Assembly (NCBI RefSeq): GCF_001677475.2
Contig: NZ_CP012497.1
Length of the DNA stretch: 64,000 nt
Direction: 5' to 3' (one strand)
Origin: Escherichia coli
GTDB lineage: Bacteria; Pseudomonadota; Gammaproteobacteria; Enterobacterales; Enterobacteriaceae
How positions within the stretch are numbered: position 1 is the stretch's first letter; the number at the start of each line of letters is the position of its first letter. Shown here one piece after another: positions 9,082 through 53,973 of this stretch. The position numbers and the translations under genes were made by a program. The notes below the pieces were generated by a model. That model worked only from the letters and a program-made list of their open reading frames with translations. It was not told the origin of the DNA and searched no databases.

Positions 9082-9917
9082 TGCAGCGTTCCTGGTTTAA
9101 TAACCGGCTTACATCAGCTAAGCAAAAGTCATTGCTCTATAAATCATTGGCTGATTTGGTTCAGTTAATGATGGATACCTTTGTTGACCCATGGTTGGAG
9201 CGAATTACCAACCGGAAGTCTATTTTTTCCATGAGCAAGGAGGATCTGGAGACCAGGACAAATGAACTTGGCCAGTTCTTTACTATCAGAACGTCGAACT
9301 CATCTTCCGTTCCGATGTTGTTACAACAGCGTCTTGATGAGATTCACTTTAAGGGAACTGAACGCCCTATAAACCAGACAATTTACCGCGAATTTAACGG
9401 TATTTCTGTTTTATGGGATCCGATATATGCACCGGTGGACCTTGAGCGTCATCCCTATGGCACAGTTCTAATACCAGAAAGCACACTGGAGACTACCGGC
9501 GGCACATTCGGCGAGATGTTTCTGACTTCCAGAGGGATGATCAGTATTCCCATAAACGACCTGGCCCGGACAATGGGTATTACTGGCACGATAGATCAGT
9601 CAGCAATTACAGAAGAAATTCTCAGAAAGTTTAATCAGTTCGTAAAGCCTCTACTGCCACTGCATATAGTGTTTGATGGGCTTACGCTCTATTTGTCGGT
9701 TGTTGTAAATGAACAGGCCGACATGATCACCTTGAACGAGATTTCTGATACCGAAAAAGCATTCTGCTGGTTTGAAACTTCGGATACAACTTCGCTTACT
9801 GGAGTTACGTCGATTAGCGCCCCTATCACCGCAACGCCGGGTGGCACTATTGTGAAAGCGACACCTACGTTTGATCGCACACGCGCAGATGATTTGTTGC
9901 TGGATAGCGACGCCTGA
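9078..9917 (+). CDS. Baseplate / tail-fibre attachment protein (gene 16 position)
   Basis: 279 aa, 4-bp overlap with the upstream gene. Confidence 0.45.
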   Translation: MMQRSWFNNRLTSAKQKSLLYKSLADLVQLMMDTFVDPWLERITNRKSIFSMSKEDLETRTNELGQFFTIRTSNSSSVPMLLQQRLDEIHFKGTERPINQTIYREFNGISVLWDPIYAPVDLERHPYGTVLIPESTLETTGGTFGEMFLTSRGMISIPINDLARTMGITGTIDQSAITEEILRKFNQFVKPLLPLHIVFDGLTLYLSVVVNEQADMITLNEISDTEKAFCWFETSDTTSLTGVTSISAPITATPGGTIVKATPTFDRTRADDLLLDSDA

Positions 9918-22997: not shown

Positions 22998-23085
22998 GAC
23001 GACAATAACTCAGTCCGCCTGGCGCCGATTATTCTGGCCGGTTTTGTAACCTGAGTGTCATTTACATGATCCAACAGGAAATGGC

Positions 23086-24585: not shown

Positions 24586-25337
24586 GCAATATCCATCACC
24601 TTGAACATAGCCTGCGTAAACTACGCCTGACACGAGTTGGAGCTGAATGGCACGCTCTGGAAAAACGAGCGCTGGCAGAAGGCTGGACACCATCGCGCTA
24701 TCTTCTGACGCTATGCAATGAAGAACTCCTGTGGCGCGAGAGTGAAAAACTGCGTCGTTATAAAAAGGAGGCCCGGTTGCCAGTTGCCAAAACGCTGAGC
24801 GAATACGACTTCAGTCAGGTGCCGGAACTGAATGGAGCTCAGTTCCGGCAACTCTGTGAAACGACAGACTGGGTTGATGCAGGAGAAAACGTTCTGCTGT
24901 TCGGAGCCAGCGGGTTGGGGAAAAGCCATCTGGCGGCAGCGATCGTGGATGGCGTAGTAGGTCAGGGCTACCGGGCCCGGTTCTACAGCGCAGGAGAGCT
25001 GTTGCAGGAACTACGTAAAGCCAGAGCTCAGTTGAAACTGAATGAGCTGCTACTGAAACTGGATCGCTACCGGGTGATAGTGGTGGATGATCTTGGCTAT
25101 GTCAAACGCGATAGTGCCGAAACGGGTGTGCTGTTCGAGTTAATAGCGCATCGCTATGAACGTGGGAGCCTGGTGATAACCAGTAACCATCCGTTCAGCA
25201 TGTGGGGCAGCATCTTCGTGGATGAGACTATGGCGGTGGCTGCGGCAGACAGGCTGATCCATCACGGATATATGTTCGAACTGAAAGGGGAAAGCTACAG
25301 GAAAAAGACAGCGAAGGCAGTAACAAGCGCGACTTGA
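24582..25337 (+). CDS. istB: IS21-family ATP-binding helper IstB
   Basis: 251 aa; Walker A GASGLGKSHLAAA and Walker B VIVVDDLGY. Confidence 0.85.
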   Translation: MSNIHHLEHSLRKLRLTRVGAEWHALEKRALAEGWTPSRYLLTLCNEELLWRESEKLRRYKKEARLPVAKTLSEYDFSQVPELNGAQFRQLCETTDWVDAGENVLLFGASGLGKSHLAAAIVDGVVGQGYRARFYSAGELLQELRKARAQLKLNELLLKLDRYRVIVVDDLGYVKRDSAETGVLFELIAHRYERGSLVITSNHPFSMWGSIFVDETMAVAAADRLIHHGYMFELKGESYRKKTAKAVTSAT

Positions 25338-25389
25338 TGTCGCCCTGAAGGGTGCGGCCAGTATAGTTGGCGCGAGTCGGCAAAACTAG

Positions 25390-26184
25390 TTGACGTCTAA
25401 TAGTGAGGCTAAAAAGTATGTCAGTGAAGAAGAACTTGAGCAGCTTGACCAACTACTTAAGCGATTCTCATATAACCCGCAGACACGCTGGCAAATGAAT
25501 CAGCGAAGTATGGGTTCGGTCCACGAGAAAGTGTTATCTGCCATGAACAGTGCGATCGCAAACTCATCCGTATCTGAAGAAAAAGCTCTTGAGTGGGCCG
25601 ACTCTTTTATCACAGAAGAAGTGGAAGAAGCCCGCGCTGGACAGAATGGTGGGATAGACCTGCGCAAGGAACTTGCTGATATTTATCGCCTGACCGGCGG
25701 GAAAATATCGACCTTATCAAAGGTAGTTCACCACCAGGGAAGGGCATATGCAAATCTAAATGGTGTTGTTGCTGTCAATTTGAACGATGAAAATGCAAGT
25801 GCACTGTGGCACGAGCTGGGTCATCATCTTGAGTACAGTAACCCTGGTTTGTTAGAGAAAGCCCGGTCATTCCTGAAGGCCAATGTTGAAGGGGATAAGC
25901 CATCTTTCGTCAATATCGGTGGGCGTGGCAAGCCTGAATGGTGCTTCAGATCTCGATTGAGTAATATTTATATGGCGAAGGTATACCCGCCAGCCTCAGT
26001 AAGTAACACCGGGAAAATTCGGCAGAAATCACCGACTATTTCCAAAACGTCAGCAACGGAAGTATTCTCTATGGCTCTTCAGTTGTATCATGACAAAGAG
26101 GCCGCTGCCGCATCACTGATGAATGGTGACGGATTGCTGGAACTGTTATTAGGTGTGGCAAAGGAGCTAAATAATGCAGATTAA
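25390..26184 (+). pseudogene. ddrB: ddrB-like gene, 3' part
   Basis: Frame continues from the upstream part once the IS and one copy of GTGAGG are removed (...GIIGE|AKKYVSEEELEQ...). Confidence 0.5.
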
Positions 26185-33528: not shown

Positions 33529-36500
33529 ATGAACAAGCTATCTATGGGGGTGTTTCGCTGTTCAAGTGTCAGCGAAATATTGAAATACATTAGGGCAATA
33601 ACATCTCACCGAGCGCCGATTAAATACGGCGTGGAAAAGGTGGAAGGCAAAAGCTATGACCGACTGCGCCGGGAGGCGAATCAGAAGGCGATAGATTTGC
33701 TTAATTCGCTGGTGGACGGCGCGACACTGACAGATGAACAGCGCCAGATCCTGGCTGGGTACACCGGTGAAGGCGGCATTGGCGGGTCCGTCTCCGAATA
33801 TTACACACCAAAGCCGATCGCTGAAGGTGTCTGGGAGATCATGAAGCTCTACGGCGCGGACGTAGGTAACACTCTGGAACCATCGGCGGGAACTGGCGTT
33901 TTTAATGAGACAAAACCGGTTGGTACGGTGATGACCGCGACTGAGATCAGCAGTGTTTCCGGTCGTATAAACCAGTTGTTACACCCGGAAGACAGCGTAC
34001 AGATTTCCCCGTTCGAACAGCTGGCTATAAGCACACCTAACGATTCATTCGACCATGTTGTGGGTAACGTTCCGTTCGGCGGTCGTGATAACACACGCAA
34101 CATCGATAAGCCTTACGCAGAAGAAACGGACATGGGTTCTTACTTCATGCTCCGCATGCTGGACAAGATAAAGCCAGGCGGATTCATGTGCGTGATTGTG
34201 CCGCCGTCCATTGTTTCAGGTTCAAACATGAAGCGGTTACGCCTGCGCCTATCACGGAAAGCTGAATTTCTTGGTGCCCACCGCTTGCCTACCGGTACTT
34301 TTGACGCAAACGGGACCAGTACAGTCGTTGATGTGGTGCTGATGCGCAAACATCCGGCAGAGATGGCTGAGAAAATCCCCCTGGTGGATGAAAGCACTCT
34401 TGAATCGGCAAATGTGCTTTGGCCAACGTTTATTTCTGGCAAGTGGTTTGAAAAGGATGGCCGCCGGTTTGTTCATGGTACCCAGGAAAAGGGCTTCCAG
34501 GGGCGTATTGAGGTTCGTGCCGACGGGCAGATTGATAACCAGGCTCTTAAAGCGAAGCTGATTCATCGTTTCGAAAGTCGTATCGACTGGTCTTTGCTCG
34601 ATATGGCTGAACCGTCACCGACCGCAGATGTTGTTGATGAAGGGGAAATGCGCCTGATTAATGGCGTATGGCAAAAATATGCTGGTGGTCGCTGGATTGA
34701 AGCTGATGCTGGTAAGGAGCTTAAGATTGATGCTGCCAGTTATGGCGCGGATAGCTGGGAGGCTCTTCAGCGTAACCTGACTACAACAGAAGGCCGTCTC
34801 GGTATGACATTTACCCAGATGGCAAATGTCCGCGATAAGTACACCACATCAATCAGCGACGATATGGTGCAGCTGGTGGACTGGATTAACAGCCAGCCTG
34901 AAAAATACCGTGAACGCTTGTATCGCGGGGCGATGATTGGCCGGATGTTAATTGAATATCAGGATATGAAGGCCGCCGGGCATAGTGCTGAACAAATCGA
35001 ACAGAAGCGCCTTTCTCTGGTATCCCGTTTGCAGGCAGAGATTGACCGTTTTGGTAACCCCGGTCGCGGTCCGATAGCTAAATTATCGGGAAGCGGTGCG
35101 CGCGCCTGGTTTGCTTTCCGTGGGGCAATTAAGCTGGATGGCACTATTTCTGACGAGCTGACAGGAAAGCTGGTTACGCATGATTCCAGCGCCAGTTATG
35201 ACTCCACCAGCTATCAGGACACCCTGCGTTATCTCTATAGCGATCTTACCCGCGATCCAATCCAGCTCGATGATTTCCGCCTTGCGTTTACCGGCGAACT
35301 GCCAGCCAGTGATGAAGAGTTGCTTAATTTATTGGCCAGCACCCCTGGTATTGCGGTTTCACCGTATGGCGGGATTGTTCCGTTCGCCCGCGCCACCAGC
35401 GGCGACATTAACGAGATAGTGGCTCCAAAACAGGAATTCCTTGCCACACTCCCCGACGGTCCAGTAAAGAACAACGTCCTTAATCAGCTGGCAGCGATCG
35501 AAGAGAAGCGCATCAAGACGCCAGCAGAGAATATCCGCTTTAAGCTCAATAGCCGTTGGTTCGACCGCTCCGTCATTCTGGAGTTTTTGCAGAAAAACGG
35601 CTATCCGGATCTGCGCTATGTGCAGTCAGTGCAGCTGGAAGGCGACGAAATGGTTTCTGACACCTATCACGGTGGTGATGGTCTGTTCGTCGGGCACCGA
35701 TACGGTGTCGTCCAGCGCAAGGATAAAGAAACAGGCGAGATCCGCTACGAGTGGGACCGTAAATCAGGTGAAAACGCGACCGGGTTCCCGGCACAGCTGG
35801 AAAAGTATCTCAATGGTGCGCGTATCGGTGGCAAAGATAGCGCGACGGCGAACGGCTACCGCGAGCAGATGGCACTGCTTGAGGACCAGTTCAATAAGTG
35901 GATCAAGACGCACGATCGCTACGATGAGCTGGTTGCCAAATACAACGATGTGTTCAATAGCAATATCCCGTATGAACACTCTGGCGATCCGCTTGGGTTG
36001 AAGGGATTAAGCGGTAAGCGTCAGCCATTTGATTACCAGAATAGCGAGGTGCGCCGACTGTCCGAAGATGGGCGCGGCATCCTGGGCTTCGGCACCGGGC
36101 TGGGTAAAACCACGACCGCGCTGGCACTTGAGGCGTTCAACTATGAGAACGGTCGCTCCACCCGTACTGCGTATGTAGTGCCTAAATCAGTGCTGGAAAA
36201 CTGGTATTACGAAGCAAAAGAATTCCTGAGTGAAGAGGCATTCAGTAACTACCTGTTCGTCGGTCTTGATGTGCTGATGGATGGCGATCAGATTCGCCAG
36301 GTGCCGGTGCTCGATGAGAACGGTAAACCTGTTCTTGGTGCTGATGGCACTCCAGTTATGCGCGATGCTCTTAAGCTGGCAGATGAAGCCACTATCACGG
36401 CGCGGATGAATGCGATCCCGCACTCAAATTACCGTGCAGTCGTGTTTACCAAAGAACAATACGCCCGCATTCCGCTACGTGATGACACCGTAGATGAGCA

Positions 36501-39500
36501 TGCACAAGACATGCTTTATGACTTCGTTGCTGCCGGACGTGTGGCCAGCGCAATGGATTCCGATTCCCATCGCAAAGAGGCGGCGCGTCGCCGGGTATTG
36601 TCGGAGTATTCAGATACCGGTACCGAAAAAGCAGAGAAGTATCCGTACTTTGAGGATATGGGCTTCGACAGCGTGATCGCCGACGAAGGCCACAACTACC
36701 GCAATAGCTATAAAAATGGTCGCGAAGCGTCACAACTGGCCTATCTGCCCACCAGTGCGGTGGCGCAATCGGCGCGGGATATGGCAATTAAAAACGCGTA
36801 CCTGATGAAAAAGAATGGCGGGCGCGGACCGGTTCTCCTGACTGCAACGCCAGTCGTTAACACCCCGATCGATGCATACAACATGCTTTCTCATGTTCTG
36901 CCGAAGGAATACTGGCAGAAGATGGGGATCTACGGTCCTGATGACTTCGTTAAATTCTTCGGCAAGACCAGGCTGGAAACGGTACAGAAAATCAGCGGTG
37001 AAGTTGAAGAAAAAATGGCGCTGGTGGGCTTTGAAAACCTTGATGCGCTGCGCGGTATATTCCATCGCTGGGTAACGCTTAAAACGGCGGAAGACGTTAA
37101 GGATACCGTGGAGATCCCGGAGCTGGACGAACACCAGCAGGATGCACCACTTACTGAAGAACAACTGGCGGCGTATGAAGAATTGCGTCAGCAGGCGGAA
37201 GCGGCAGCAAAAGCCAACAATGGCGTAACGACCTCGGTTAATGAAGACGGCGTGATTGAGCACGAGAAAGCCCGTCCGATCTTCTCAATAATCAGGGATA
37301 TGGACCGCGTATGTACTGACATGGACCTGTACTATCGCCGGATCACCTATCGTTTCCTGCCGGAGTACGCCGATGCGGTGCAGCAGCTGGCGGACAGTTT
37401 GCCTAAACAAGCCACCAGCGAAGACGACGACAGTGATGATTCAATCACGCAGCAATCGCAATACTCCCTGATAGATAAGGGCGAGTTTATTCAGTTGCAG
37501 GTTCCGGAAGCGTTTGAGCAGGAAGTGAATAAGCGCCTGGCCAAGTTTGGCATTGACGAACAGACCGTAACTCACCCCGTTACGCCCAAATACGCGAAGC
37601 TGATCGCCACGCTGAAGGAGTTTTTCCCGGAAGGTAAGCAAATCATCTTCACCGATGAAAAAACGCAACACCAGAAGCTCAAACGCATTATCTGCAATGC
37701 TCTTAACCTTGAACCTTCAAAGGTGGGGATCCTGAATGCTCAGACGGTTGCCGAGGCAGGCAAAACCGGTCAGAAACTGAAAGCTGTTAAACCGCCGAAA
37801 GAGCTACCGGATGAACCAACAGATGCACAGATAGCGAAATACAACGAGCAAATGGCTCTGTATGACGCCTATATCGCGCAGCAAAATGAAATGTCGTTGG
37901 GCGGTCTGGAAAAGATTGCAGCCGACTTCCAGGAGGGCTGGACTCCGATCATCATCTGCAACAAAAAGGCAGAGGTGGGTATCAACCTGCATCGAGGAAC
38001 GACTGACATCCATCATCTGACGTTGCCATGGACACCAGCCAGTATCGCACAGCGTAACGGTCGCGGTGCCCGAGTTGGCTCCAACCGTGCAAGCGTTCGC
38101 GTTCATTACTACTGCGGCAAGGGTTCTTTCGATGAATACCGACTTAAGACGCTGAAGCGTAAAGCAGGCTGGATCTCCGATATCCTCCGTTCAGATAAGT
38201 CAGAAATGGAGAACGCCGACGCCAACGATATGATCGAAATGCAGATGTATACCGCTAAGGATGATGGCGAACGTCTGGCAATGATGCAGGTTCAAATGGA
38301 TAAGGCGAAAGCCGCGCAACGCGCTCGCCAGAAAGAACAGGCTACTATCGACCTTCAGAACTACATCAAGGCGCAGCACGCAGCTGGCGAGGATGTGGAG
38401 GTACTTACCGCTGAATTAGAGCGAAGCAAAGCGGAATTTGAAAAGAGCACCGACGAGGTAGCTAAATTCAAACAGGCGGTAATGGCCAAAGCAGCTGATA
38501 ACGCAGACTGGAAGGCCCGCTGGGGGAGTGTCCATCACACAGACCGTATGTTGTTAGCACAGTATCGCGCGTCGTTGAAAAGCGCCATTCAGCGCAAGGC
38601 TAATATCTCTCAAGCCATTTCCCGCTATGAGAAATTATTGAACCGTACTCAGAAGGCCGCGACGGATATCAAACGCCTGCGCCCGCTGGTGGAGGATGCA
38701 ATAAATAAAGGCATTCTGGATGTTGATCCTGATCTGGTTAACCATGCGAATGAGTTCCTTGTTATCGGCGATCGCTCATGGCGTGTAGGCCAATACTACG
38801 ATTGTGCCGGTGATATCGTTCGCATTAAGTCGCTGGACTTCGACAGCCAGCGCGCAGACGTGGAGATTATCTTTACCTTCAAAGGCACCAAATCGGGTAA
38901 CTGGGATGTGAAGACGCTGGATAAACAGGTGGATGTAACTCCCGATGAAGATGCTGTTATGCAGAAAATCAGTGGTGGCGTCTCCATCGCCGGGATTAAC
39001 GACATCATTTCCTGTGACGATTTCTACCGTTTCCAGCAGCGCGGCATGATCAAAATCACTGACTCATACGGCGTTCAGACTACAGAGTCAGGCTATAGCA
39101 TTGATTTTGTCGGTACCTATACGAACCCACTGAAGCATGCGGTTTACCCGGATCGCCGTGACGGCGCGCTGAAGTCGTCAATTGCAAAATGGGTGCTTGG
39201 TATGATGTCGGAAGGGAATAACCGCCAGGTCCGTTTGGCAGAAGTATTCCTGACTGAACTGTTTGGCTCCAATTATGGCGATGTAATCGCGTCATACGGA
39301 GATACGCTATCTCCTGAAGCAATTCAGGAGAAAATAGCGGATGCGATCGCCAGAATGCCGGAGAAAACAAGCCAGGGGGCTACTCGTAACGGGGATTCTG
39401 AACTTGAGGTCACCAATGCTATTTTCGGTACCCATGAGTTCCGGTCGTCAGATTATGAGATCACCACAACACAGTTTGGCACCATTGACATTTACAGCAA

Positions 39501-40296
39501 TAAAGATGAGATCAAGCAGGCAATGGACGCAGCAAGCGCGCGCATTGCAGCAGAACGGAAAGCCAATCTGAATCATGCAGTCGCCGCGCTGACTCAATCG
39601 TGGGTAACAGCAATCAGGGAGGCCGCCACCACAGGGAAAATCACACCTGCAATTGCGGATGTCGTAAACGAAGGCTCTAAATTTATGGATGCCTATAAAA
39701 TGGATTCGGTGCAGTTGCCATCAGCCTATGGCCAACTCAGCTATCGCATGACCTACAACCTGGTATCAATGTTTTCTGACCTTGCCATTCTTGGGCTGGT
39801 GGACCTTAACGAGGTTACGCCGGAATTGCTCAGCATGCGCAAGAATCATGTGGAGATATTGCAGAGAATTAACACGGCACTTGCCGGGCGCACTGATGAA
39901 GAGAAACAGGCCGACGCTGATCGGATAAACCTGGCCCTAGGCAACATCACGGAGGAAGAAATTGCCGCCAGAAACGAGAAACAAGAAGAGTTATCATCAA
40001 TACAGGGTGATGCCACCAGCATAGCTCAGTCTCTTGGTCTGAATTATCGCGTATCCACCGCCGACTTGAAGATGATGTACGCACCAAAATTCGCCGCTGG
40101 TGAGGTATTTGGGCTTCAGGAGGCGTCCGGCATGAAAGGCATTCTTTTCCGTGCGAAAGACGCAATCAAGGCGAAATTCGGCGCTCGCTGGCTGCCAGCG
40201 AAGGCGAAGAACAGCGATTTCCCGGGTAACTGGTGGATTATCGAGACAAAACACAACGTGGCGGACGTTCTGGCCGTCATCCAACAATACGCATAA
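33529..40296 (+). CDS. darB: DarB antirestriction protein (N6-adenine methyltransferase plus SF2 helicase)
   Basis: 2255 aa; MTase-like motifs EPSAGTGVF and GNVPFG; helicase motif I GFGTGLGKTT and motif II VIADEGHNY. Confidence 0.85.
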   Translation: MNKLSMGVFRCSSVSEILKYIRAITSHRAPIKYGVEKVEGKSYDRLRREANQKAIDLLNSLVDGATLTDEQRQILAGYTGEGGIGGSVSEYYTPKPIAEGVWEIMKLYGADVGNTLEPSAGTGVFNETKPVGTVMTATEISSVSGRINQLLHPEDSVQISPFEQLAISTPNDSFDHVVGNVPFGGRDNTRNIDKPYAEETDMGSYFMLRMLDKIKPGGFMCVIVPPSIVSGSNMKRLRLRLSRKAEFLGAHRLPTGTFDANGTSTVVDVVLMRKHPAEMAEKIPLVDESTLESANVLWPTFISGKWFEKDGRRFVHGTQEKGFQGRIEVRADGQIDNQALKAKLIHRFESRIDWSLLDMAEPSPTADVVDEGEMRLINGVWQKYAGGRWIEADAGKELKIDAASYGADSWEALQRNLTTTEGRLGMTFTQMANVRDKYTTSISDDMVQLVDWINSQPEKYRERLYRGAMIGRMLIEYQDMKAAGHSAEQIEQKRLSLVSRLQAEIDRFGNPGRGPIAKLSGSGARAWFAFRGAIKLDGTISDELTGKLVTHDSSASYDSTSYQDTLRYLYSDLTRDPIQLDDFRLAFTGELPASDEELLNLLASTPGIAVSPYGGIVPFARATSGDINEIVAPKQEFLATLPDGPVKNNVLNQLAAIEEKRIKTPAENIRFKLNSRWFDRSVILEFLQKNGYPDLRYVQSVQLEGDEMVSDTYHGGDGLFVGHRYGVVQRKDKETGEIRYEWDRKSGENATGFPAQLEKYLNGARIGGKDSATANGYREQMALLEDQFNKWIKTHDRYDELVAKYNDVFNSNIPYEHSGDPLGLKGLSGKRQPFDYQNSEVRRLSEDGRGILGFGTGLGKTTTALALEAFNYENGRSTRTAYVVPKSVLENWYYEAKEFLSEEAFSNYLFVGLDVLMDGDQIRQVPVLDENGKPVLGADGTPVMRDALKLADEATITARMNAIPHSNYRAVVFTKEQYARIPLRDDTVDEHAQDMLYDFVAAGRVASAMDSDSHRKEAARRRVLSEYSDTGTEKAEKYPYFEDMGFDSVIADEGHNYRNSYKNGREASQLAYLPTSAVAQSARDMAIKNAYLMKKNGGRGPVLLTATPVVNTPIDAYNMLSHVLPKEYWQKMGIYGPDDFVKFFGKTRLETVQKISGEVEEKMALVGFENLDALRGIFHRWVTLKTAEDVKDTVEIPELDEHQQDAPLTEEQLAAYEELRQQAEAAAKANNGVTTSVNEDGVIEHEKARPIFSIIRDMDRVCTDMDLYYRRITYRFLPEYADAVQQLADSLPKQATSEDDDSDDSITQQSQYSLIDKGEFIQLQVPEAFEQEVNKRLAKFGIDEQTVTHPVTPKYAKLIATLKEFFPEGKQIIFTDEKTQHQKLKRIICNALNLEPSKVGILNAQTVAEAGKTGQKLKAVKPPKELPDEPTDAQIAKYNEQMALYDAYIAQQNEMSLGGLEKIAADFQEGWTPIIICNKKAEVGINLHRGTTDIHHLTLPWTPASIAQRNGRGARVGSNRASVRVHYYCGKGSFDEYRLKTLKRKAGWISDILRSDKSEMENADANDMIEMQMYTAKDDGERLAMMQVQMDKAKAAQRARQKEQATIDLQNYIKAQHAAGEDVEVLTAELERSKAEFEKSTDEVAKFKQAVMAKAADNADWKARWGSVHHTDRMLLAQYRASLKSAIQRKANISQAISRYEKLLNRTQKAATDIKRLRPLVEDAINKGILDVDPDLVNHANEFLVIGDRSWRVGQYYDCAGDIVRIKSLDFDSQRADVEIIFTFKGTKSGNWDVKTLDKQVDVTPDEDAVMQKISGGVSIAGINDIISCDDFYRFQQRGMIKITDSYGVQTTESGYSIDFVGTYTNPLKHAVYPDRRDGALKSSIAKWVLGMMSEGNNRQVRLAEVFLTELFGSNYGDVIASYGDTLSPEAIQEKIADAIARMPEKTSQGATRNGDSELEVTNAIFGTHEFRSSDYEITTTQFGTIDIYSNKDEIKQAMDAASARIAAERKANLNHAVAALTQSWVTAIREAATTGKITPAIADVVNEGSKFMDAYKMDSVQLPSAYGQLSYRMTYNLVSMFSDLAILGLVDLNEVTPELLSMRKNHVEILQRINTALAGRTDEEKQADADRINLALGNITEEEIAARNEKQEELSSIQGDATSIAQSLGLNYRVSTADLKMMYAPKFAAGEVFGLQEASGMKGILFRAKDAIKAKFGARWLPAKAKNSDFPGNWWIIETKHNVADVLAVIQQYA

Positions 40297-40329: not shown

Positions 40330-40770
40330 ATGGCCACACTATCTGATACAATAAAACCGAATAAAACATATCTTGAGGCGGTACTCCGTACAGCGTTGTT
40401 AGGAAAGACAGAAGACGAATACGTTGATTTCTTCCTGTCAGGGCTACGCGGGCGATTACTGAAAAATCCCCGCCTGTACCGCAGCTACGGCCCATACTGG
40501 CCGGAAATTAAAAAATTATTACTGGAGCGCGGTTATGGTAATTTCGGTCGTCTCGTTGACCGTGACGTTCGCAAAATTTACCGTTATGACCGCCCGGCGC
40601 TGACGCTCATAGCCGCGACGCTCTACAGCCAGGAGCGTTTTGATAATGGTCAGATATACTCAGCCTGGCATTTACTGCCAGTGCCTGAAGAGGTTGACGA
40701 CCAGGACTATGAGTTTGAGTCTTACGATTTGGAAGTTGAAGCCTTAGCACAGGCTGGAGAGAAAACTTGA
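40330..40770 (+). CDS. Hypothetical protein (ulx position)
   Basis: 146-aa ORF 34 bp downstream of darB. Confidence 0.35.
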   Translation: MATLSDTIKPNKTYLEAVLRTALLGKTEDEYVDFFLSGLRGRLLKNPRLYRSYGPYWPEIKKLLLERGYGNFGRLVDRDVRKIYRYDRPALTLIAATLYSQERFDNGQIYSAWHLLPVPEEVDDQDYEFESYDLEVEALAQAGEKT

Positions 40771-41015
40771 AAAAGCGATACTACACAGTAAAGCATGGGA
40801 CGCTACGAGCATTACAAGAGTTTGCTGATAAGCATAACGTTGAGGTGCGCAGGGAAGGGGGAAGTAAAGCTCTGCGGATGTACCGTCCGGACGGAAAATG
40901 GCGGACGGTCGTCGATTTCAAAACTAACAGCGTTCCCCAGGGCGTCCGCGACCGGGCATTCGAAGAATGGGAGCAAATCATCATAGATAATGCATTGCTC
41001 CTGAATATAGATTGA
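40767..41015 (+). CDS. Lxc/Bof-like small protein (by size and position)
   Basis: 82 aa, 4-bp overlap with the upstream ORF. Confidence 0.35.
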   Translation: MKKRYYTVKHGTLRALQEFADKHNVEVRREGGSKALRMYRPDGKWRTVVDFKTNSVPQGVRDRAFEEWEQIIIDNALLLNID

Positions 41016-41155
41016 TATACTTAAAGGTTGCGGTTACTGGCCCCTCTGATAGCCATACTCCATGAAGAGCAAACTTGTGAAGTTCCATATCTTCATGCGT
41101 TTCTTGGTCATGGAGTATTTATATTGTATAGGTAGATATTGTTTGAGTGCAGTTA

Positions 41156-41500
41156 TCACTGCATCGAGATGTAATTAGGACATGGTAATATACATTTCTT
41201 GAACGTACTATCTTTACCGGAGAACTTTATTCTCACATAAGGGGATAATGAAATATCTACCCAGAATGTGATGTCATTATGAATTCCTAACTTTTTGTAT
41301 ATTTTGTATTTCTGAAAAGAAACTGTTTTAATGCTGCGAAATCGGGACTTTGATATCTGAGTGATATTATATCCCTTTAATAATAACTCAAGTACGCTGC
41401 ATTCAGCTTCTGTCAATGATGCAGATATCCACACATGAACTGTAATATCATGCCTTTCTATATGTGCTTTTATATAACAAGTTTCTTTTTTATTATTCAT
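41156..41500 (-). CDS. LuxR/GerE-type HTH transcriptional regulator (small, no receiver domain)
   Basis: 114 aa; LTEAECSVLELLLKGYNITQISKSRFRSIKTVSFQKYKIYKKLGI matches the LuxR C-terminal HTH; AT-rich context. Confidence 0.55.
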   Translation of the reverse strand: MNNKKETCYIKAHIERHDITVHVWISASLTEAECSVLELLLKGYNITQISKSRFRSIKTVSFQKYKIYKKLGIHNDITFWVDISLSPYVRIKFSGKDSTFKKCILPCPNYISMQ

Positions 41501-41604
41501 TTTGTTAATATATATATCAAAAGATAGAAATAATGGAATATCGGTGTCATGGTAAAGAGCAGTCCATCCATGGTTCTGCTCTTTGTTCTTAGATGCTATT
41601 TAGT

Positions 41605-44600
41605 TCAGAAGGTATACTTCACACCCAACATTGCAGATGTGTCGTTATACCCTTTGTCACCGACTTGAACACCTACATTCCCCCACAGGTTCAGTCTGGA
41701 ATTTATCTGCCCCTCAACACCGGTTTTTATTTCTCCGATATTACGGGCACCGTCCTGATGTACCGTCACACCATTCATACGAGTACCAAAATCACGGGTG
41801 TTATGCAGCCAGTTCACTTCCACAAATGGGCTGAATTCCCGGGATTTGCCTTCATCTATACGACTGTGGCTTTTAATCCATGTTTTCACGCCCAGACGGG
41901 TACGGACATTACCATCTCCGGTGCTTTCAACACGGGTACCGTTGCTTTCGCGATGTTCGTCCGCTTTAACACCCATCCAGATGACCTGAGCCTGAGGCTG
42001 GACATACCACTCATTCAAACCACCTTGGCTGCCCGTAAACTCACCAGCCTTCCAGGTATAACCAGTTTCCAGTGATGCAGTAAGTCCTTTTGATTTCCAG
42101 GATTCACTCTGCAATCCATCACCTTTAACATAGTTATCAAACCAGCTGTACTGTGCCCAAGAGTCTAGGTAAGCCCCGTTATGTGTTTCATCATTGGCAT
42201 ACCAGGTGGCATACAGCCCAGTGCTGTAACCATTCACACTACCTTTTGAACGATATCCTGTGCGCACAGATTCTGTATTATTGTGGTCATTACCGTATCC
42301 GGCCATTAAGCCAAGATGCCAGCGATCCGTTTTATTCCAACCCCACTGTGCTATATCGCCGCCCAGTTGCATAACATAACGGTTGCTTTGTGTTTTTAAC
42401 TGGTTGCTTCCGTCGCGCCAGCGATTGTGTCCACCCTCATGACGCATCCACATGCTTGTAGTTTTCAATTCACCGGTAATCACATCGGTATACTGCATTT
42501 GCCCCTGACGTTCGTGTAGGCGAGTCACGAACATAGTATTTGCAGCAGCAATGTTTGCCGTATAGCTACCAGCTTCTGGGCGAAGATCATTGTCACCTGG
42601 TGTTGGGGTCGGATTTGGCTCCGGGTCCGGGTTCGGAGTTGGATCCTCAGGTTGTTTGCCACTAGTTAGGTACCAGTTGCCATTTTTATCGCCTTGCCCC
42701 CGCCCAAGAGTGTAATCATAAGCACCAGCCGCAATTCGGCCAACTTGTACAAAGTCACCGTTAGATTGACCATCAACCTGGATAATGTTGATGCCATTGA
42801 GTGTTTGTGCCCCAATACCACCAACGTTGTTTACGGAAACAAAGGTTTTACCCTCTGTATTTCCTTTTACAACCAACTTATCGATTGGAGATGTGTCGTC
42901 ACCAAGAACGCCTGAAAAGTAGATATAGCCATTTTCGCCAGTATAATCACCATTAATTGTTAAAGTGTTTTTTGCATCGCTGCCCAAATATATAGAGCCA
43001 TTATTATTAAGATGAGCAACATCCGAATCGCTAACCATATTCCAGATGCTGTTTTTAGCTAAATTAACAATGCCACCATTATACGCGGTTCCAGTCCAGT
43101 TGGAATTTTCTAATGAAAGATTGGCAATACTGTTACTATCAGCGCGAATATCGCCATTAAAGGAAGTATTCTTGACTGTAACATCAACGTTCCCTCCCAC
43201 ACCGGCATCATTACTGGTTGAGAAGATGAATGTGCCGTTATTCTTTATTTGGCTGCCATCTAACGTGGCGGAAATAGCACCACCATTAGCATTAAAGTTA
43301 TATCTAGTTTCGCTAATCATCACCCCATTCTCTTGGGTAAGCTCAACTTTTGCATTATTGGCAGCGACTACAGAGTCAGCCTCTTTTCCTGATACATGAA
43401 TGGATGCATTATTGCCACTAATAACTGTATTGTCATCACTGACCCATATTCCATGAGCATAATCACCGCTTGTTGTAATCGATGAACCAGAACCAAGTGT
43501 AATTTTTGCAGCTGAATTTGCTGTTGCTCCATATGAGTTTAGCCCCTTAGTAATAATCTGGGCTGTATGGGCATTAACAGTGGCTTCATTTTGTGCATTT
43601 ATACCGTATGAGTCAGTACCGGCTGTATTAATAGCTATTTGCTCGAAGCTAATATCAGCTACTTTACCATGCCCCCACACACCTATTGACTGATCACCTA
43701 ATGTGGCGATTGTTGATGTTCCCGTCAGCTCTACGCGTGAATCAGGTGCTGAGTCTGAGGGATTTAAAGCCGTAACATATATACCTTTGGCTGATGTGCC
43801 ATTTGTTTTTATTGAGATACTATCACCCGTTATTATACCACCATTACCACCGGTGATATGGATGGTATTAGCCTGCGTCCCTGATGTTTCAAGAGATGCA
43901 TTTACTCCAAGATTTATATTCCCATTATTAGAGGCAGTTACGGCATGAGCTTGTTTGCCAGAAGTGGTTACCTGGAGTCCTTTAGATACAGATATACTAG
44001 AGTTATTGCCATCTGCACGTAAACCATAGCCATTTTGGCCTGAAGTGGAAATATGAACATCAGCTAATTCAGCTGAGCCAGCTGACGATGCAGATACTCC
44101 CCAAGCCCCTGTTCCATCAGTTTTAATCTGCGTATTTGTTAGTGAAACATAACCGTTGTTTTCGGCAGATATGCCACGAGCTCCCCATGCTTGTGATGGT
44201 TTTTTATCCCCCAGAGTGGTAATGGTTGAGTCGCTAATTACTATTTTGCTATTTATGCCAGAGCTAACAATACCTCTGGCATTATCTCCAGATGTGGTAA
44301 TGTTAACTTTATTTAAACTGGCTTGGCCTCCATTTAAAATAGAAACACCACTAGCATTTACACCAGATGTGTTAATATCACCTTGTTCAACAGTTAGTGA
44401 AGATTTGTCAACATTAATCCCTGTAGCGTTTATCCCACTTGTTGTAATTGACATACCGTTAGCGATAGTCATTGAAGAATTATTATCAAGTGAAATGCCA
44501 GAGGCGTTTTTGCCTTTTGTGGTTATTGTAATCCCACCTTGAGAGTTAATTTTAGACCCACTGGATATATTAACTCCGTTTGCCTTATCACCTTCTGTAG

Positions 44601-44859
44601 ATAACGTCACTGTACCTTCGGTAGTTAGTTCACCTGAATTTGTGACAGAGATCGCATATCCATTACTTCCTGTATTACTGCCCGTATTAATATCGAGGTT
44701 ATCTTTATTAACTTGAACATCATTATCAATTTTAATAGCAGTTGTTGAAGCGTAAGCATTTGAAAATAATGCGCCGATTATAGCTGCCAGTAGGGTCAAG
44801 CGAGGAGAGTTCCCCCCTGAAGAGCTATTTTTTTTATTATTATAAACAGAAAGTGACAT
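41605..44859 (-). CDS. AIDA-I-type autotransporter adhesin (type Va secretion)
   Basis: 1084 aa; N-terminal signal peptide; about 700 aa of imperfect Gly/Ser/Thr/Asn-rich repeats; Pro-rich linker PEDPTPNPDPEPNPTPTPG; C-terminal beta-barrel ending GVKYTF. Confidence 0.85.
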   Translation of the reverse strand: MSLSVYNNKKNSSSGGNSPRLTLLAAIIGALFSNAYASTTAIKIDNDVQVNKDNLDINTGSNTGSNGYAISVTNSGELTTEGTVTLSTEGDKANGVNISSGSKINSQGGITITTKGKNASGISLDNNSSMTIANGMSITTSGINATGINVDKSSLTVEQGDINTSGVNASGVSILNGGQASLNKVNITTSGDNARGIVSSGINSKIVISDSTITTLGDKKPSQAWGARGISAENNGYVSLTNTQIKTDGTGAWGVSASSAGSAELADVHISTSGQNGYGLRADGNNSSISVSKGLQVTTSGKQAHAVTASNNGNINLGVNASLETSGTQANTIHITGGNGGIITGDSISIKTNGTSAKGIYVTALNPSDSAPDSRVELTGTSTIATLGDQSIGVWGHGKVADISFEQIAINTAGTDSYGINAQNEATVNAHTAQIITKGLNSYGATANSAAKITLGSGSSITTSGDYAHGIWVSDDNTVISGNNASIHVSGKEADSVVAANNAKVELTQENGVMISETRYNFNANGGAISATLDGSQIKNNGTFIFSTSNDAGVGGNVDVTVKNTSFNGDIRADSNSIANLSLENSNWTGTAYNGGIVNLAKNSIWNMVSDSDVAHLNNNGSIYLGSDAKNTLTINGDYTGENGYIYFSGVLGDDTSPIDKLVVKGNTEGKTFVSVNNVGGIGAQTLNGINIIQVDGQSNGDFVQVGRIAAGAYDYTLGRGQGDKNGNWYLTSGKQPEDPTPNPDPEPNPTPTPGDNDLRPEAGSYTANIAAANTMFVTRLHERQGQMQYTDVITGELKTTSMWMRHEGGHNRWRDGSNQLKTQSNRYVMQLGGDIAQWGWNKTDRWHLGLMAGYGNDHNNTESVRTGYRSKGSVNGYSTGLYATWYANDETHNGAYLDSWAQYSWFDNYVKGDGLQSESWKSKGLTASLETGYTWKAGEFTGSQGGLNEWYVQPQAQVIWMGVKADEHRESNGTRVESTGDGNVRTRLGVKTWIKSHSRIDEGKSREFSPFVEVNWLHNTRDFGTRMNGVTVHQDGARNIGEIKTGVEGQINSRLNLWGNVGVQVGDKGYNDTSAMLGVKYTF

Positions 44860-45343
44860 AGATAACCTCGAGTTTATACATTATCCGGATTTATAATAAC
44901 AGATGTTTTAGTTTACTGTGTGATTATGTTCTCGCAAATATTCATGCATTTCGCTGCACAAAATCGGAAAAATAATAAATAAGGAGGTTGAATAAATCAA
45001 TTATTCACTTTAAATAAATTTCAAATGAAAATCATTCAACAAATATATGCGATTAATGTGCATCGTTACATAAAAATCATGGAGACGCATTGAATTATTA
45101 TTCAATTATTGATTATGAAACAACCAGCTTAATATGCGTGCTATTAATTCCTCCATTTATCACCTTTATATCTACTGGTAATAGATGCTGAGGCTTGGTT
45201 AGTAAAATGTCTTCATTTGGTGTTGATGTTAATTTGTGTTTTTTATTGTTTTGTTTTTGTTTTTTATGTGTTTTGCAAATAATAATTTTTGGTTACCTTA
45301 AGTAGTAATTTGTAATTAGCTGCTTGGTGTAATAAGTTTGAAA

Positions 45344-46012
45344 TTAAAGGTAATCATATTTACCTGTGAGTAAGCCTTGCGGCACACGTGTTTCTCCCAT
45401 TCGTTGAGTAGCATTAATAATATTGATGAATGGCTCTATCAGCGAGGGCTCACGCTGCGTATTAATCCTACCAGCCATTGCCTGAATGTAGTGCGCGCTC
45501 ACCACGTTGTTGTATTCCGTTGCAAAGCAACATAGTAGCGTCAGAACGTGCTCTGTGGTTATTTCGCTCCAGTTGATGTTGAAAAATTCATCGCCTTTTT
45601 TGTCGTGTTCGGAATCGAAGATGCTTTGATGGAGAATGTACTTGCCGGACTCCTTGCGTGGTAACTTGATCGCTTTCTGGCGTTCCAGCTCCTTGTAAAT
45701 CTGCATTGCTTCAATCAGTACCGGCCTGCCGTTCATGAAGGGATCGCGCAACCTTACACGCTGGCCAACTCGACCAGTAATAAAGCTGTTTTCCTCTTCC
45801 ACCAGCACGATAAAACCCTTTTCCTCTTTTTCTCGCAATTCGCGCAGCAGCTGGAGTTCCATGTCGCGGCGGCGTTCAGGGTAGCTGGTCCGCTCAGCCA
45901 TTATCAGCTCGTTGTTGATCCATGCAGCAGTCATTGACGCCGGTTTGCCGACGTTCATCGAAACAACGCATATTTTCTTATCCATAGCTCCCCCTACAAA
46001 AAGAAAAGCCAC
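45344..46012 (-). CDS. Hypothetical protein (mat position)
   Basis: 222-aa ORF between the autotransporter island and ref. Confidence 0.35.
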   Translation of the reverse strand: MAFLFVGGAMDKKICVVSMNVGKPASMTAAWINNELIMAERTSYPERRRDMELQLLRELREKEEKGFIVLVEEENSFITGRVGQRVRLRDPFMNGRPVLIEAMQIYKELERQKAIKLPRKESGKYILHQSIFDSEHDKKGDEFFNINWSEITTEHVLTLLCCFATEYNNVVSAHYIQAMAGRINTQREPSLIEPFINIINATQRMGETRVPQGLLTGKYDYL

Positions 46013-50816: not shown

Positions 50817-51932
50817 TTATTCAGCCGCCACCGGTTTTAACAAGCCAGCATCGAGCAGTTTACGCGTCAACCACTGTTGGCCTTTCCCCGTTAATTGAGG
50901 CGTCAGCCGTATCTGATAGCCATCTTCATCATCCAGCACCACTTCTCTCACTGTGAAATATCCGGCGTTTATGTACTGCTGAAACGGTACATTTTTACGT
51001 CCGCCGGACGCAATCAGGATGCCGTTCTCCCGTAACCAGGCAAACAGCGCATTTTGCTTAAGTCCAACAACCTTTGCAAAATTCCCAATCAGGATCCCCT
51101 TAGCCACTGATACCCGGTCGGCAAAATCGACTTTAGGGGCTGCGGCCACCAGCTGCTGATTTAGCTGGTGGGTTTTCTGTTCCAGAAGTTGCTTTTGTTC
51201 AGCCAGCTCGGCAGCCAGGCGCAGAGCTTCTGGAAGCGTCTGGGGGATTGCGATCGGTTGCTGTTCTTTTTGTCGGAAGTAGCTGTCTTCCAGTTTTTCA
51301 AAGAATGCCCATGCCTGATCTGTTTCGAGCATTTTTGCGTGACGGGCAGCTCCTCGTTCCGTCCAGAGGATGAGTGAGCGGGCTTTAGGAGAGATGGGAT
51401 TTTGTGAGTTACTTAAAGTCACCCGCAAATTGTTCAAATCATCTCCAATAACTTTATAGAAATGCTTGCCTTCACAAAAACGTTCAGCATTACGGGAAAA
51501 GTTCTTCTTGATGTTATCCGCATCGGTCCCATACCCCTTAGCAAGGATCTTGGTTGTCACTACACGCACTCCCAGCCATTCCAGAACGGGAATTTCATCA
51601 GACTGATTCTGAACAACCACCAGCTCTGACTCCTGAACTGAAGGTGCATGAACTTTTTCTGATTTAACGTTAGTTGCTTTCATTCTGTGTGCCTCCTTGC
51701 GTGTTTCGGCTGCGACGGTTGCGTAATTCAGATGCCCCTGTTCGAGCAGGTATTCGCGGATATCAGACAGCAGGATGCGGTGAACCGCGTTCTTGTCCTT
51801 TCTCCGGTAAAGTTGTTTGGTGATCATGAAGTAGTTGGCTATAACGCCTGGTATATCCCTGGTACTGATACAAGCAGTGTGCTGTTCAATTGCCTCGATC
51901 ATCTCTTCACGGGTGACTAATGACGTTCTCAT
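50817..51932 (-). CDS. ant1: Antirepressor Ant1-like (KilA-C / antirepressor C-terminal domain)
   Basis: 371 aa from MRTSLVTREEM...; its start overlaps the icd stop (ATGA); C-terminal DFADRVSVAKGILIGNFAKVVGLKQNALFAWLRENGIL. Confidence 0.6.
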   Translation of the reverse strand: MRTSLVTREEMIEAIEQHTACISTRDIPGVIANYFMITKQLYRRKDKNAVHRILLSDIREYLLEQGHLNYATVAAETRKEAHRMKATNVKSEKVHAPSVQESELVVVQNQSDEIPVLEWLGVRVVTTKILAKGYGTDADNIKKNFSRNAERFCEGKHFYKVIGDDLNNLRVTLSNSQNPISPKARSLILWTERGAARHAKMLETDQAWAFFEKLEDSYFRQKEQQPIAIPQTLPEALRLAAELAEQKQLLEQKTHQLNQQLVAAAPKVDFADRVSVAKGILIGNFAKVVGLKQNALFAWLRENGILIASGGRKNVPFQQYINAGYFTVREVVLDDEDGYQIRLTPQLTGKGQQWLTRKLLDAGLLKPVAAE

Positions 51933-52150
51933 AGTCCCTCCTGAGCACAAGCGTTTACAGGGGGGCACCAGTAACTGAGAGAATTGCGCAAATCGGTAGA
52001 AAAACGGGCGGAGAAAATACAGGGAGCATCCGGAAGCTGAGAACGTGCCTCATCTTCTGTTGGTGCGATAACGAAGTGATAGTGACGTTTCTGGCAGGAG
52101 TAAAAGCGCCAGATGAATTCAGGGTGAGCTGGGGTAGGGGTAGTAGCCAT
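51929..52150 (-). CDS. icd: Icd-like small protein
   Basis: 73 aa (MATTPTPAHPEFIWRFY...), strong SD AAGGAGG 8 nt upstream; translationally coupled to ant. Confidence 0.55.
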   Translation of the reverse strand: MATTPTPAHPEFIWRFYSCQKRHYHFVIAPTEDEARSQLPDAPCIFSARFSTDLRNSLSYWCPPVNACAQEGL

Positions 52151-52159
52151 AATGGCAGC

Positions 52160-52468
52160 CTCCTTAGACGTTGGTATGTAACCACCGCAGAAGAGACCAA
52201 TCTTGCTGGCGGTGGACTGTACGGAGTTGGCCTTACTGGCGTCCAAGGTAACCAGCCTACCCGAAGGTAGCCCCATACAGCCCACCATTGTAGAGGTGTG
52301 CGTGTACGCCGATACAAAAAAAGACGCGAGCGGCGTCTGTATCGCCTTAGACTTAAGCGGGAGGCCAATCCCGGCACCCGTTTTAATGAGGTGCCTGATC
52401 AGCATAAACCGAAAATGCCTCAAGGCGCAAGAGGTCAGGTTCAATGTAACATCGGTAGTTAAAAAACA
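52160..52468 (-). ncRNA. Candidate c4-like antisense RNA / structured leader of the icd-ant operon
   Basis: About 300 bp non-coding region upstream of icd, with a terminator-like hairpin and a repeat of the icd RBS-region sequence (CCTTAGAC). Confidence 0.3.
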
Positions 52469-52469
52469 C

Positions 52470-52486
52470 AATTTATTAGAGCAAAT
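52470..52486. promoter_or_regulatory. C1 operator variant upstream of the icd-ant region
   Basis: Reverse complement ATTTGCTCTAATAAATT. Confidence 0.45.
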
Positions 52487-52488
52487 AT

Positions 52489-53973
52489 TCATTCATTAAG
52501 CCATGCCAGAGCTTCATCAACCTGCGCTTCGTCTTCGACGCTAAGCACTTCATCCTGGGGAACATAATCCGCCAGCATAGCGAAACAATATGTATCCCAA
52601 TGGTCTGGTGAGTGCAGGTTGAGTTTTTTCTTCATATCCTCCTTACTCATCACCTTCCATTGACCTGCGGAGTTAATCCCTACAGGGATTTTCGACGCTT
52701 CCTCAATAGTTTCATTACCCTTATCCAGTCTCATACGACCAGATTTTACGGCCTCTGCGGCTTGAACGTTGGCATAAGCACGTTTATCAAAGTACAGGCT
52801 CTTATCTTCACGGCTATGCATCTTTTTACCCCAGCGTATACGCTGTACGGTAATACCATAATACTCGTACATCAGATCCGCCGTTGCTTTACCCAGGCCA
52901 TCGCCGTCTATCGCTATGGTGATATTGGGGAATCGCTCAGGATTACATTCTGCGAAAATTTTGGCAGCAAGCTGCGTTTCTGTAACGTCTGTGTATTCCA
53001 GCATTCGATAGTTGATTACACGGCGTTTATTTCGCTGGCCGGACACCATCATGATATTGATAACGGACTTATCCCGTCCCGTACCACCAGCAACGTCCAC
53101 ACATGCAAGCCAGCCCCATCCTTTGGCAATCTTGACTTTCCGCCGCGTTGCACGTTCAACCTCATCACGTCCAAGAAGGAAGCCATCCTGTGATTTAGGG
53201 AATAGGCCGCGTACCTTAATCATGTACATAGGGTTATCACGCCCGCCGTACTCCGCCAGCTTCATTTTGATAAATGCTGGCGTTACCAGCGGTGATTCCT
53301 CACTGTTAAGCGTGATCGCCGTATAAACGCCATCAGGGTTACCAGGACGCTTGGCCAGTTTATGGTGAGTATCGTAGAAATAGCCGCTTGGGCGTGTAGG
53401 CTGTGACAGCAATAAGATGCGGTTATCCTGTCCGGTAAGAGCACCGGTGATGATACCGAAAGCTCTATCACTGACACCGGAGGCTTCATCGATAATATAC
53501 AGAAGATGGTCTGCGTGTTCACCAGCGAGAGCTTCTTCACTTCCCAGACGAAAGCCCTTCGGTACTACAGTCCATACACCTTTACCAGTAACCTCATAGA
53601 AAGCGGTTTCTGTCAGAACAAAATAATCAGCAAGCCATGGAAAACGGCTGGTGGCCGTAGCCCAGTTTATCTTGATGTACTTGAATATACCGGTCATTAC
53701 CTGCTGAATTTTGTTCGCAACGATAATGGCGCGGGCACCGGGATACATGATTATGAACAACATGATCATGATAGAAGTCATGTCTGATTTCCCGGTACCG
53801 TGACCAGACGAAACAGATGTCTTGCTACCCTGTTCCTGCACAGACTCAATAATCAGATCCTGCTGCCAGGTAGGTGTTTTGCCGAACAAAACATCTGCCG
53901 CCGCAATCCAGTCATAACGATATAGCGCCACCAGCTCGCGCCAACGCGGATCCGTTACGCAACTTCTGGCCAT
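52489..53973 (-). CDS. pacB: Terminase large subunit PacB
   Basis: 494 aa; Walker A HGTGKSD, Walker B IIDEAS, C-terminal nuclease-like domain. Confidence 0.9.

Follow-up and report, generated by a model that had tools for sequence, protein, structure and literature searches.

Introduction

In bacteriophage P1 the interval between mat and lxc is occupied by res, mod and IS5; in P1-like phage-plasmids this res-mod region is listed as 'highly variable region 1', which has been linked to low guanine-plus-cytosine (GC) content (PMC9603915). Here we analysed a 64,000-nucleotide (nt) stretch of Escherichia coli DNA (contig NZ_CP012497.1, assembly GCF_001677475.2; the whole stretch is called the window below) from a P1-like phage-plasmid, in which the mat–lxc interval, the position of res/mod in P1, houses an autotransporter gene and, behind it on the same strand, a gene for a small DNA-binding regulator. 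This island is a two-gene accessory, colonisation-type cassette in variable region 1.

Two characterised proteins are related to the small regulator. PdeL (YahA) of E. coli K-12 is described as a FixJ/NarL/LuxR-type protein with fliFGHIJK, sslE and its own promoter as validated targets, and as a repressor of the fli genes (bioRxiv 10.1101/2022.01.19.477023; PMC12890032; PMC5052742). SrgD, encoded by the Salmonella plasmid pSLT, is reported together with PefI as a negative regulator of flagellar class I expression (PMC3224193).

Results

The cassette lies at the res/mod position between conserved P1 backbone genes

Both open reading frames (ORFs) were found as the initial annotation had described them: 41605–44859 on the minus strand, encoding 1084 amino acids (aa) and ending in GVKYTF, and 41156–41500 on the minus strand, encoding 114 aa. 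The comparison with P1 also bore out their location. The left flank consists of the P1 backbone genes darB (33529–40296), ulx and lxc, and the right flank of mat, ref, c8 and cre. The stop codon of lxc (bof; 40767–41015, plus strand), whose product gave a 70-residue tblastn match with 100% identity to P1 Lxc, forms the left edge of the slot. Homology to P1 in blastn ended at position 41006, 9 bases short of this stop, and returned at 45471. The segment 41016–41155 (minus strand), which is the 3' flank of the regulator gene and convergent with lxc, is island DNA without P1 homology in blastn; its GC content is 0.386, and it is related only to two regulator-bearing P1-like elements, the sibling plasmid CP056895 (L001) and Escherichia albertii pEA4_97 (L004).

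At the right edge the boundary falls inside mat. The last 42 codons of this gene (45344–45470, minus strand) were not P1-like in blastn, being common to L001 and L004 and unlike both P1 and L030/L031, and the rest of it (45471–46012, minus strand) is P1 backbone, with 96.8% nucleotide identity to P1 from 45471 on. The island had previously been ended at 45343; relative to P1 the non-homologous stretch reaches 45470 and includes the last 127 nt of mat. The window mat ORF (45344–46012) has a GTG start and encodes 222 aa, and the P1 annotation gives 250 aa. The lxc stop was the exact point of divergence for all cargo types compared, and the last ~42 codons of mat occurred as at least three alleles that co-varied with the type of cargo in the adjacent slot. 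Because of these two observations, the data suggest that cargo is swapped via homologous recombination within mat and at lxc.

The GC content of the island, 0.400, was the lowest among 299 sliding windows of equal size across the 64 kb (median 0.474). The composition check showed extremes in the regulator gene (0.316) and in the region upstream of the autotransporter gene (0.275), and the spacers were also strongly AT-rich; the part encoding the autotransporter barrel was unremarkable (0.485). The description of both genes as lying in strongly AT-rich DNA is thus correct for the regulator gene, the spacers and the upstream region, but does not extend to the barrel-coding part.

The slot is not purely a defence slot

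The survey of the slot sampled records from the 794 PLSDB plasmid entries that matched the region at all, most of them P1-like. In the sampled records the mat–lxc cargo comprised SIR2, DUF2971, RelA/SpoT, PIN, GNAT, YaaC or DUF4935 genes, and an alternative cargo was an AraC-type regulator with an EAL protein. Since relatives also carry these AraC-type and EAL genes there, the slot is not purely a defence slot. The EAL protein of this pair in L029–L031 (CP081715, CP099021, LC257586) is a putative cyclic di-GMP (c-di-GMP) phosphodiesterase whose catalytic residues appear intact, and the pair, which was found in many P1-like plasmids, is another non-defence, lifestyle-type cargo. The autotransporter cassette itself was present among the PLSDB records in CP056895.1 only.

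A res/mod locus elsewhere in the element, which would have argued against a replacement, was sought and rejected. The window corresponds to ~63 kb of the 98-kb sibling plasmid CP056895; tblastn and tblastx with P1 res/mod, which covered the window only, detected no Res/Mod homologue, and the annotation of the complete sibling plasmid lists no restriction enzyme. The earlier proposal that the island replaces a defence module holds only as a comparison with P1, since the slot is hypervariable (PMC9603915) and also holds the AraC–EAL pair.

In a rival reading the cassette would itself be an anti-phage or superinfection-exclusion module, in which coating or aggregation by the autotransporter passenger together with a shut-down of flagella hides lipopolysaccharide and flagellar receptors; its place in a slot where defence genes otherwise abound would then be accounted for. 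The slot does carry a type III restriction-modification system in P1 and SIR2, PIN, RelA/SpoT, DUF2971 and DUF4935 genes in relatives, and both cassette genes are kept under purifying selection (see below). PADLOC, however, placed the autotransporter in no family, and the similarity of the regulator to part of a CARF model was of a generic helix-turn-helix (HTH) kind only; IncF and IncHI plasmids carry this gene pair amid adhesin and virulence genes rather than in defence islands; and the AraC–EAL cargo in the same slot likewise speaks against a defence role. We regard such a role as improbable. If it were real, it would define an element-serving, non-enzymatic, receptor-masking class of cargo for defence hotspots.

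The larger gene encodes a type Va autotransporter with an AIDA-I-like translocator

The product of 41605–44859, identical to WP_244585966.1, was recognized as an intact classical (type Va) autotransporter by Pfam, NCBIfam, structure matching and AlphaFold. Its N-terminus (MSLSVYNNKKNSSSGGNSPRLTLLAAIIGALFSNAYA, followed by S) has a hydrophobic core and an AxA-type site, and was judged from the sequence and the AlphaFold helix to be a Sec signal peptide of 37 aa. The signal peptide (residues 1–37) is followed by a beta-helical passenger (~42–611), an autochaperone (612–718), a Pro-rich linker (736–763), a plug helix (761–775) and a beta-barrel (802–1084), and the protein ends with a terminal aromatic residue (...KYTF). 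The autochaperone, encoded by 42706–43026 (minus strand), was matched by Pfam AC_1 (E 2.5e-27) and by the IcsA autochaperone structure 3ML3 (E 5e-20). The Pfam Autotransporter domain (PF03797) was matched at residues 803–1062 (E 8e-44), the autotransporter family TIGR01414 scored 412 bits against a cutoff of 16, and residues 628–1084 matched the crystal structure of the AIDA-I transport unit, 4MEE (E 1e-95).

The AlphaFold model, built on 31 homologues with a predicted local distance difference test (pLDDT) score of 87.9, contained a signal-peptide helix (21–32), an unbroken beta-helix from 42 to 732 with pLDDT mostly above 90, a linker helix (761–775) and 12 long strands (802–1083). Foldseek placed this model on 4MEE with a target-normalised template modelling (TM) score of 0.96, a root mean square deviation of 1.4 Å and 38% identity. 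The barrel (coding region 41608–42456, minus strand) is thus predicted to have the 12 strands on which the AIDA-I-type assignment of the initial annotation depended, and that assignment is borne out at the level of the translocator. The predicted Sec signal peptide, the modelled 12-strand barrel with linker helix and terminal aromatic, and the modelled beta-helical passenger with autochaperone together characterise a type Va protein.

The passenger gave a different picture. In Pfam it had no AIDA (PF16168), pertactin, PATR or ESPR match; its coils are ~26 residues long with a TxGxxAxGI motif and are free of cysteine. The whole-protein AIDA-I family NF033176 scored 305 bits, below its cutoff of 1200, and the named NCBIfam families likewise fell under their cutoffs (ECSE_1600, 588/2335; MisL, 521/1297; YfaL/EhaC, 215/1459; ShdA, 189/2249), with alignments confined mostly to the C-terminal half. 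No Aah/TibC-type heptosyltransferase was found in the window by tblastn with a TibC-type probe, and 44860–45343 is without any ORF. The term 'AIDA-type' is therefore right for the translocator only. Because the passenger lacks AIDA, pertactin and PATR repeats and no glycosyltransferase is present in the window, 'adhesin' is a family-level assignment for this protein: of the earlier designation the autotransporter family stands, and the passenger carries no characterised adhesin repeats in Pfam.

Among the closest known autotransporters are chromosomal E. coli proteins (P0011/P0012 clusters; L002 and L015) at the ends of CP4-44-like islands, with 68–72% full-length identity and 87–88% identity of the barrels. 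Their surroundings differ, as they adjoin flu and cbtA/cbeA-type island genes and no homologue of the small regulator was found alongside them; in L002 a gene for a 511-aa EAL protein lies downstream of the autotransporter gene instead. Among phage annotations, PHROG phrog_15824, labelled 'tail fiber protein proximal subunit', matched the barrel at E 2e-221, and the autotransporter gene of phage GER2 (MG710528) is named long tail fiber proximal subunit; both look like mis-named autotransporters. In phage phi456 (OR339795, L034) the gene for another autotransporter, listed as a hypothetical protein, lies at a different site, in a region flanked by IS1.

The smaller gene encodes a stand-alone relative of the PdeL N-domain and SrgD

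The 114-aa product of 41156–41500 was identified as a stand-alone FixJ/NarL/LuxR-type HTH regulator through its homology to the PdeL N-domain and to SrgD, which agrees with its first description as a small LuxR-family HTH protein. Pfam matched the GerE/LuxR HTH (PF00196) at residues 28–76 (E 3.6e-10); only 27 residues precede it, and neither Pfam nor NCBIfam detected a receiver, autoinducer-binding or any second domain. Residues 7–83 aligned without gaps to residues 3–79 of PdeL with 43% identity over 77 residues (E 8e-19), and this alignment takes in the pre-HTH segment and the DITFW motif after the HTH. SrgD (pSLT orf7, 116 aa) showed 47% identity in the HTH core (E 7e-17) and 30% overall. 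The recognition-helix motif RSxKT[VI]SxQK is invariant throughout the regulator family. No EAL homologue was found anywhere in the window, and the ORF stops at residue 114. A scan of species-representative genomes with the regulator returned mostly generic RcsB-like HTH domains, the informative matches being only PdeL and two autotransporter–HTH–EAL loci, and no homologue was found in any record of the phage collection.

The autotransporter–regulator order recurs on other replicons

In the window 104 nt separate the autotransporter gene from the regulator gene, which follows it on the same strand. Regulator homologues of 55–70% identity were found ~95–110 nt downstream of an autotransporter gene, again on the same strand, on many replicons. 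Besides the window, this order was seen in the sibling plasmid (L001), in IncF plasmids (L005, L006, L007, L116, L117 and L119), in a Salmonella IncHI1 plasmid (L008), where the regulator gene stands behind a tibDBCA-like locus, and in Citrobacter rodentium pCROD1 (L118), where a regulator pseudogene stands behind an AIDA-type gene. An EAL gene follows the regulator gene in L006, L008, L117, L036 and L037. In L009 the order is pef-like fimbriae, EAL gene, regulator gene, and in pSLT the regulator gene comes after the pef operon. The EAL partner proteins are 53–55% identical to each other and to the PdeL EAL domain; therefore, as judged from these alignments, we read the regulator–EAL gene pairs as split PdeL-like proteins. 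By the same comparison the window cassette would hold only the DNA-binding half of such a pair, and regulators without an EAL partner recur on the IncF plasmids L005, L007, L116 and L119.

Three further arrangements were observed. In the IMG/VR P1-like contigs L018–L020 genes for a 2641-aa autotransporter, a 180-aa ORF product without NCBIfam match and a 128-aa regulator homologue (61% identity) form cargo at a second P1-like site (1232–10387 in L020), beyond pacAB on the c1 side of cre. The 5.1-kb contig L036, labelled as a Collinsella sp. metagenome-assembled genome, contains an Escherichia-type barrel (77% identity), a regulator gene and the start of an EAL gene, and is probably a mis-binned enterobacterial contig. 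In L004, which is also P1-like, positions 7001–9163 hold mat fused to a fragment of the autotransporter passenger (~residues 80–170), followed by ulx and lxc; the regulator homologue is convergent, with a pef-like fimbrial operon upstream of it. L004 appears to derive from the same island by inversion or replacement. As it carries a fragment of this autotransporter fused to mat, it was dropped as independent evidence for a fimbriae–regulator association and was not counted.

Both genes are intact in many contigs and under purifying selection

The cassette was found in the same P1 context, with intact ORFs, in at least 24 contigs representing two alleles, and the order cre–c8–ref–mat–autotransporter–regulator–lxc–ulx–darB was seen in every context examined. 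Clusters at ~89% identity or more contained ~96 sequence variants of the autotransporter with lengths of 1061–1106 aa, several of them on contigs of 93–99 kb. Between the two island alleles the C-terminal unit (barrel) was 98.5–98.9% identical, the passenger ~84% and the regulator 69%. The ratio of nonsynonymous to synonymous divergence (dN/dS) was 0.12–0.25 for the regulator gene and 0.225 for the autotransporter gene (barrel 0.07, passenger segments 0.12–0.34), so that both genes are under purifying selection. Synonymous divergence between the same two elements was 1.47 for the regulator gene and 0.21 for the autotransporter gene; because of this difference within one element pair, the sequences indicate that the cassette genes have mosaic histories and have retained their linkage.

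These values also bear on the view that the cassette is silent, hitch-hiking cargo, with intact genes that bring no benefit to the lysogen and a regulator left over from a split PdeL-like pair minus its EAL half. Autotransporters of E. coli are often cryptic under laboratory conditions, the extreme AT-richness of the island suggests silencing by H-NS, and HTH–EAL gene pairs and fusions exist in relatives while the EAL part is missing here. Against it stand the dN/dS values well below 1 for both genes across the two alleles, the intact ORFs in at least 24 independent contigs and the recurrence of the EAL-less regulator on the four IncF plasmids named above. We hold silent cargo to be rather unlikely.

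The upstream region and the intergenic spacer

The 484-nt region upstream of the autotransporter gene (44860–45343, minus strand; 27.5% GC) was examined by sequence inspection. Its recognisable features are a GAGG ribosome-binding site and a single consensus-like candidate sigma-70 promoter, with the -35 element at 45000–44995 and the -10 element at 44977–44972. It has no GATC site, which excludes a Dam/OxyR phase switch of the Ag43 type. An alignment of four diverged upstream regions revealed a palindrome, TGAAT-N4-ATTCA, at 45091–45104 as a candidate operator; it is kept in the window, L001, L002 and L015, where the L002 copy shows a compensatory change in its flank, and occurs once in the 64 kb. 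It resembles the consensus of the ArgR ARG box. Because the chromosomal relatives, for which no regulator homologue was detected, have the palindrome as well, it is unlikely to be the binding site of the regulator itself.

Just past the autotransporter stop codon we read from the sequence a hairpin, AAAGAGCAG-N13-CTGCTCTTT (41554–41584, minus strand), without a U-run. The fold of the 116-nt spacer (-15.5 kcal/mol) was not significant relative to shuffled sequences (z -1.06), and an intrinsic terminator between the two genes was rejected on both grounds. The hairpin is identical in L001; L007 and L008 have stem-loops of other sequence at the same place, and L005/L006 have none that is clear. 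Judged by its position and sequence, it may act as an attenuator or a stabiliser of the mRNA 3' end. No Rfam element was found in 40800–45600, and a tandem-repeat search gave trivial repeats only.

The initial annotation had proposed the small regulator as a local activator. This proposal gained no support: the regulator gene comes after the autotransporter gene, and its product is a homologue of the PdeL N-domain and of SrgD. A wider form of it, in which the regulator activates or anti-silences the autotransporter promoter and the AT-rich upstream region is freed from H-NS silencing through positive feedback, has several points in its favour. The upstream region is only 27.5% GC, the best NCBIfam matches of the regulator HTH are RcsB and BglJ, and RcsB and BglJ counteract H-NS. 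A downstream position still permits autoregulatory feedback if the genes are co-transcribed, and PdeL, the closest characterised relative, activates its own promoter via an upstream imperfect palindrome (PMC5052742). The regulator nevertheless sits downstream of its supposed target, and the TibA-type loci that carry it have upstream regulators of their own (L008). The only clearly conserved upstream element, 45091–45104, is kept equally in the chromosomal L002 and L015, where no regulator homologue was found. The same regulator family stands behind unrelated adhesins, autotransporters as well as fimbriae, with unrelated promoters. An operator common to the pdeL promoter and the island upstream region was looked for by inspection and rejected, as no motif was shared. 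We consider local activation unlikely, though less so than silent carriage.

Other differences between the window and the sibling plasmid

Outside the cassette, the window contains an IS21-family element (22993–25402; istA 23086–24585, istB 24582–25337) that is not in the sibling plasmid. Its insertion splits one ORF into 20781–22997 and 25390–26184; in the sibling plasmid a single gene for 995 aa lies right after ddrA, and this is probably ddrB, a gene of the dar antirestriction operon in P1. An extra Ant-like antirepressor gene (50817–51968; phrog_63, E 2e-134) and an Icd-like gene (51929–52492) lie between the c1 side and pacB (52489–53973) and are absent at the equivalent position of the sibling plasmid.

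Discussion

The comparisons presented here establish what both proteins are and how they are built, where their genes lie in the slot, the adhesin–regulator(–EAL) order on many replicons and the purifying selection on both genes. From them we infer adhesion, co-transcription of the two genes, the targets of the regulator and control by H-NS. The reading that we favour, to which we give a probability of about 0.45, is that the passenger promotes attachment and that the co-expressed PdeL-N/SrgD-type regulator controls host promoters in trans, with flagellar promoters as its likeliest targets.

The autotransporter would be exported via Sec by its 37-aa signal peptide, and its C-terminal barrel would insert in the outer membrane, so that a beta-helical passenger of ~690 residues, followed by the autochaperone, is displayed on the cell surface. 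There it would most likely serve the lysogen as an adhesin or aggregation factor. Expressed together with the adhesin or just after it, the regulator would work in trans at promoters of the host. Flagellar promoters, at which PdeL and SrgD also act, are the most likely ones, and surface attachment and motility would then be reciprocally regulated. Lacking an EAL domain, the regulator would not sense c-di-GMP. In laboratory cultures H-NS probably keeps the promoter region, which is very AT-rich, silent.

Several observations weigh against this reading. The transcriptional activity of PdeL is coupled to its EAL domain, which the regulator lacks. The regulator gene has no recognisable Shine-Dalgarno sequence, and the hairpin upstream of it could stop transcription; its fold is not better than shuffled. 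SrgD is reported to act with PefI, and no PefI homologue was found in the window. The passenger matches no characterised adhesin repeat family in Pfam, which makes adhesion a family-level expectation. PdeL also activates its own promoter (PMC5052742), so a local role has a precedent. By analogy with the characterised relatives, we would still favour adhesin-coupled control of motility over local activation.

If adhesin-coupled motility control is correct, lysogeny by some P1-like phage-plasmids would shift the E. coli host to an attached lifestyle without motility, and the means would be a compact adhesin and regulator cassette that is also in circulation among IncF and IncHI virulence plasmids. 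P1-like elements are known to carry cargo for defence, antibiotic resistance and metabolism; colonisation traits would then join this list, and a widespread, little-studied family of stand-alone PdeL-N/SrgD-type regulators would tie adhesin expression to motility.

Compared with AIDA-I, the autotransporter shares the type Va layout, the autochaperone, the linker helix and the 12-strand barrel; it differs in the passenger, which has coils of ~26 residues and lacks the 19-residue AIDA repeats, and in the lack of an adjacent Aah/TibC heptosyltransferase gene. The small regulator resembles PdeL, a LuxR-HTH and EAL 'trigger' phosphodiesterase, in its homologous N-domain and its recognition-helix motif. 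It differs from PdeL in having no EAL domain, which would leave it capable of neither c-di-GMP sensing nor hydrolysis, and in being encoded by a phage-plasmid behind an adhesin gene. With SrgD of the pSLT pefI-srgC operon it shares a similar size, the LuxR-type HTH and a position downstream of a plasmid adhesin operon; here, however, there is no PefI partner, and the adhesin is an autotransporter and not a set of chaperone-usher fimbriae. PapX, FocX and MrpJ belong to different protein families (MarR-like and MrpJ-type HTH). They offer a functional analogy only, in that a small DNA-binding protein, whose gene stands last (3') in an adhesin operon, represses flagellar genes (PMC3224193, PMC12890032). 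Relative to the res/mod (EcoPI) locus of P1, the island has the same mat–lxc insertion point and the same low GC content typical of the region (PMC9603915), but its cargo is unrelated to restriction-modification, is transcribed in the opposite orientation and is accompanied by another mat 3' allele. Each component is thus of a well-known class, in a slot already described as hypervariable, and what is new is their combination and their location.

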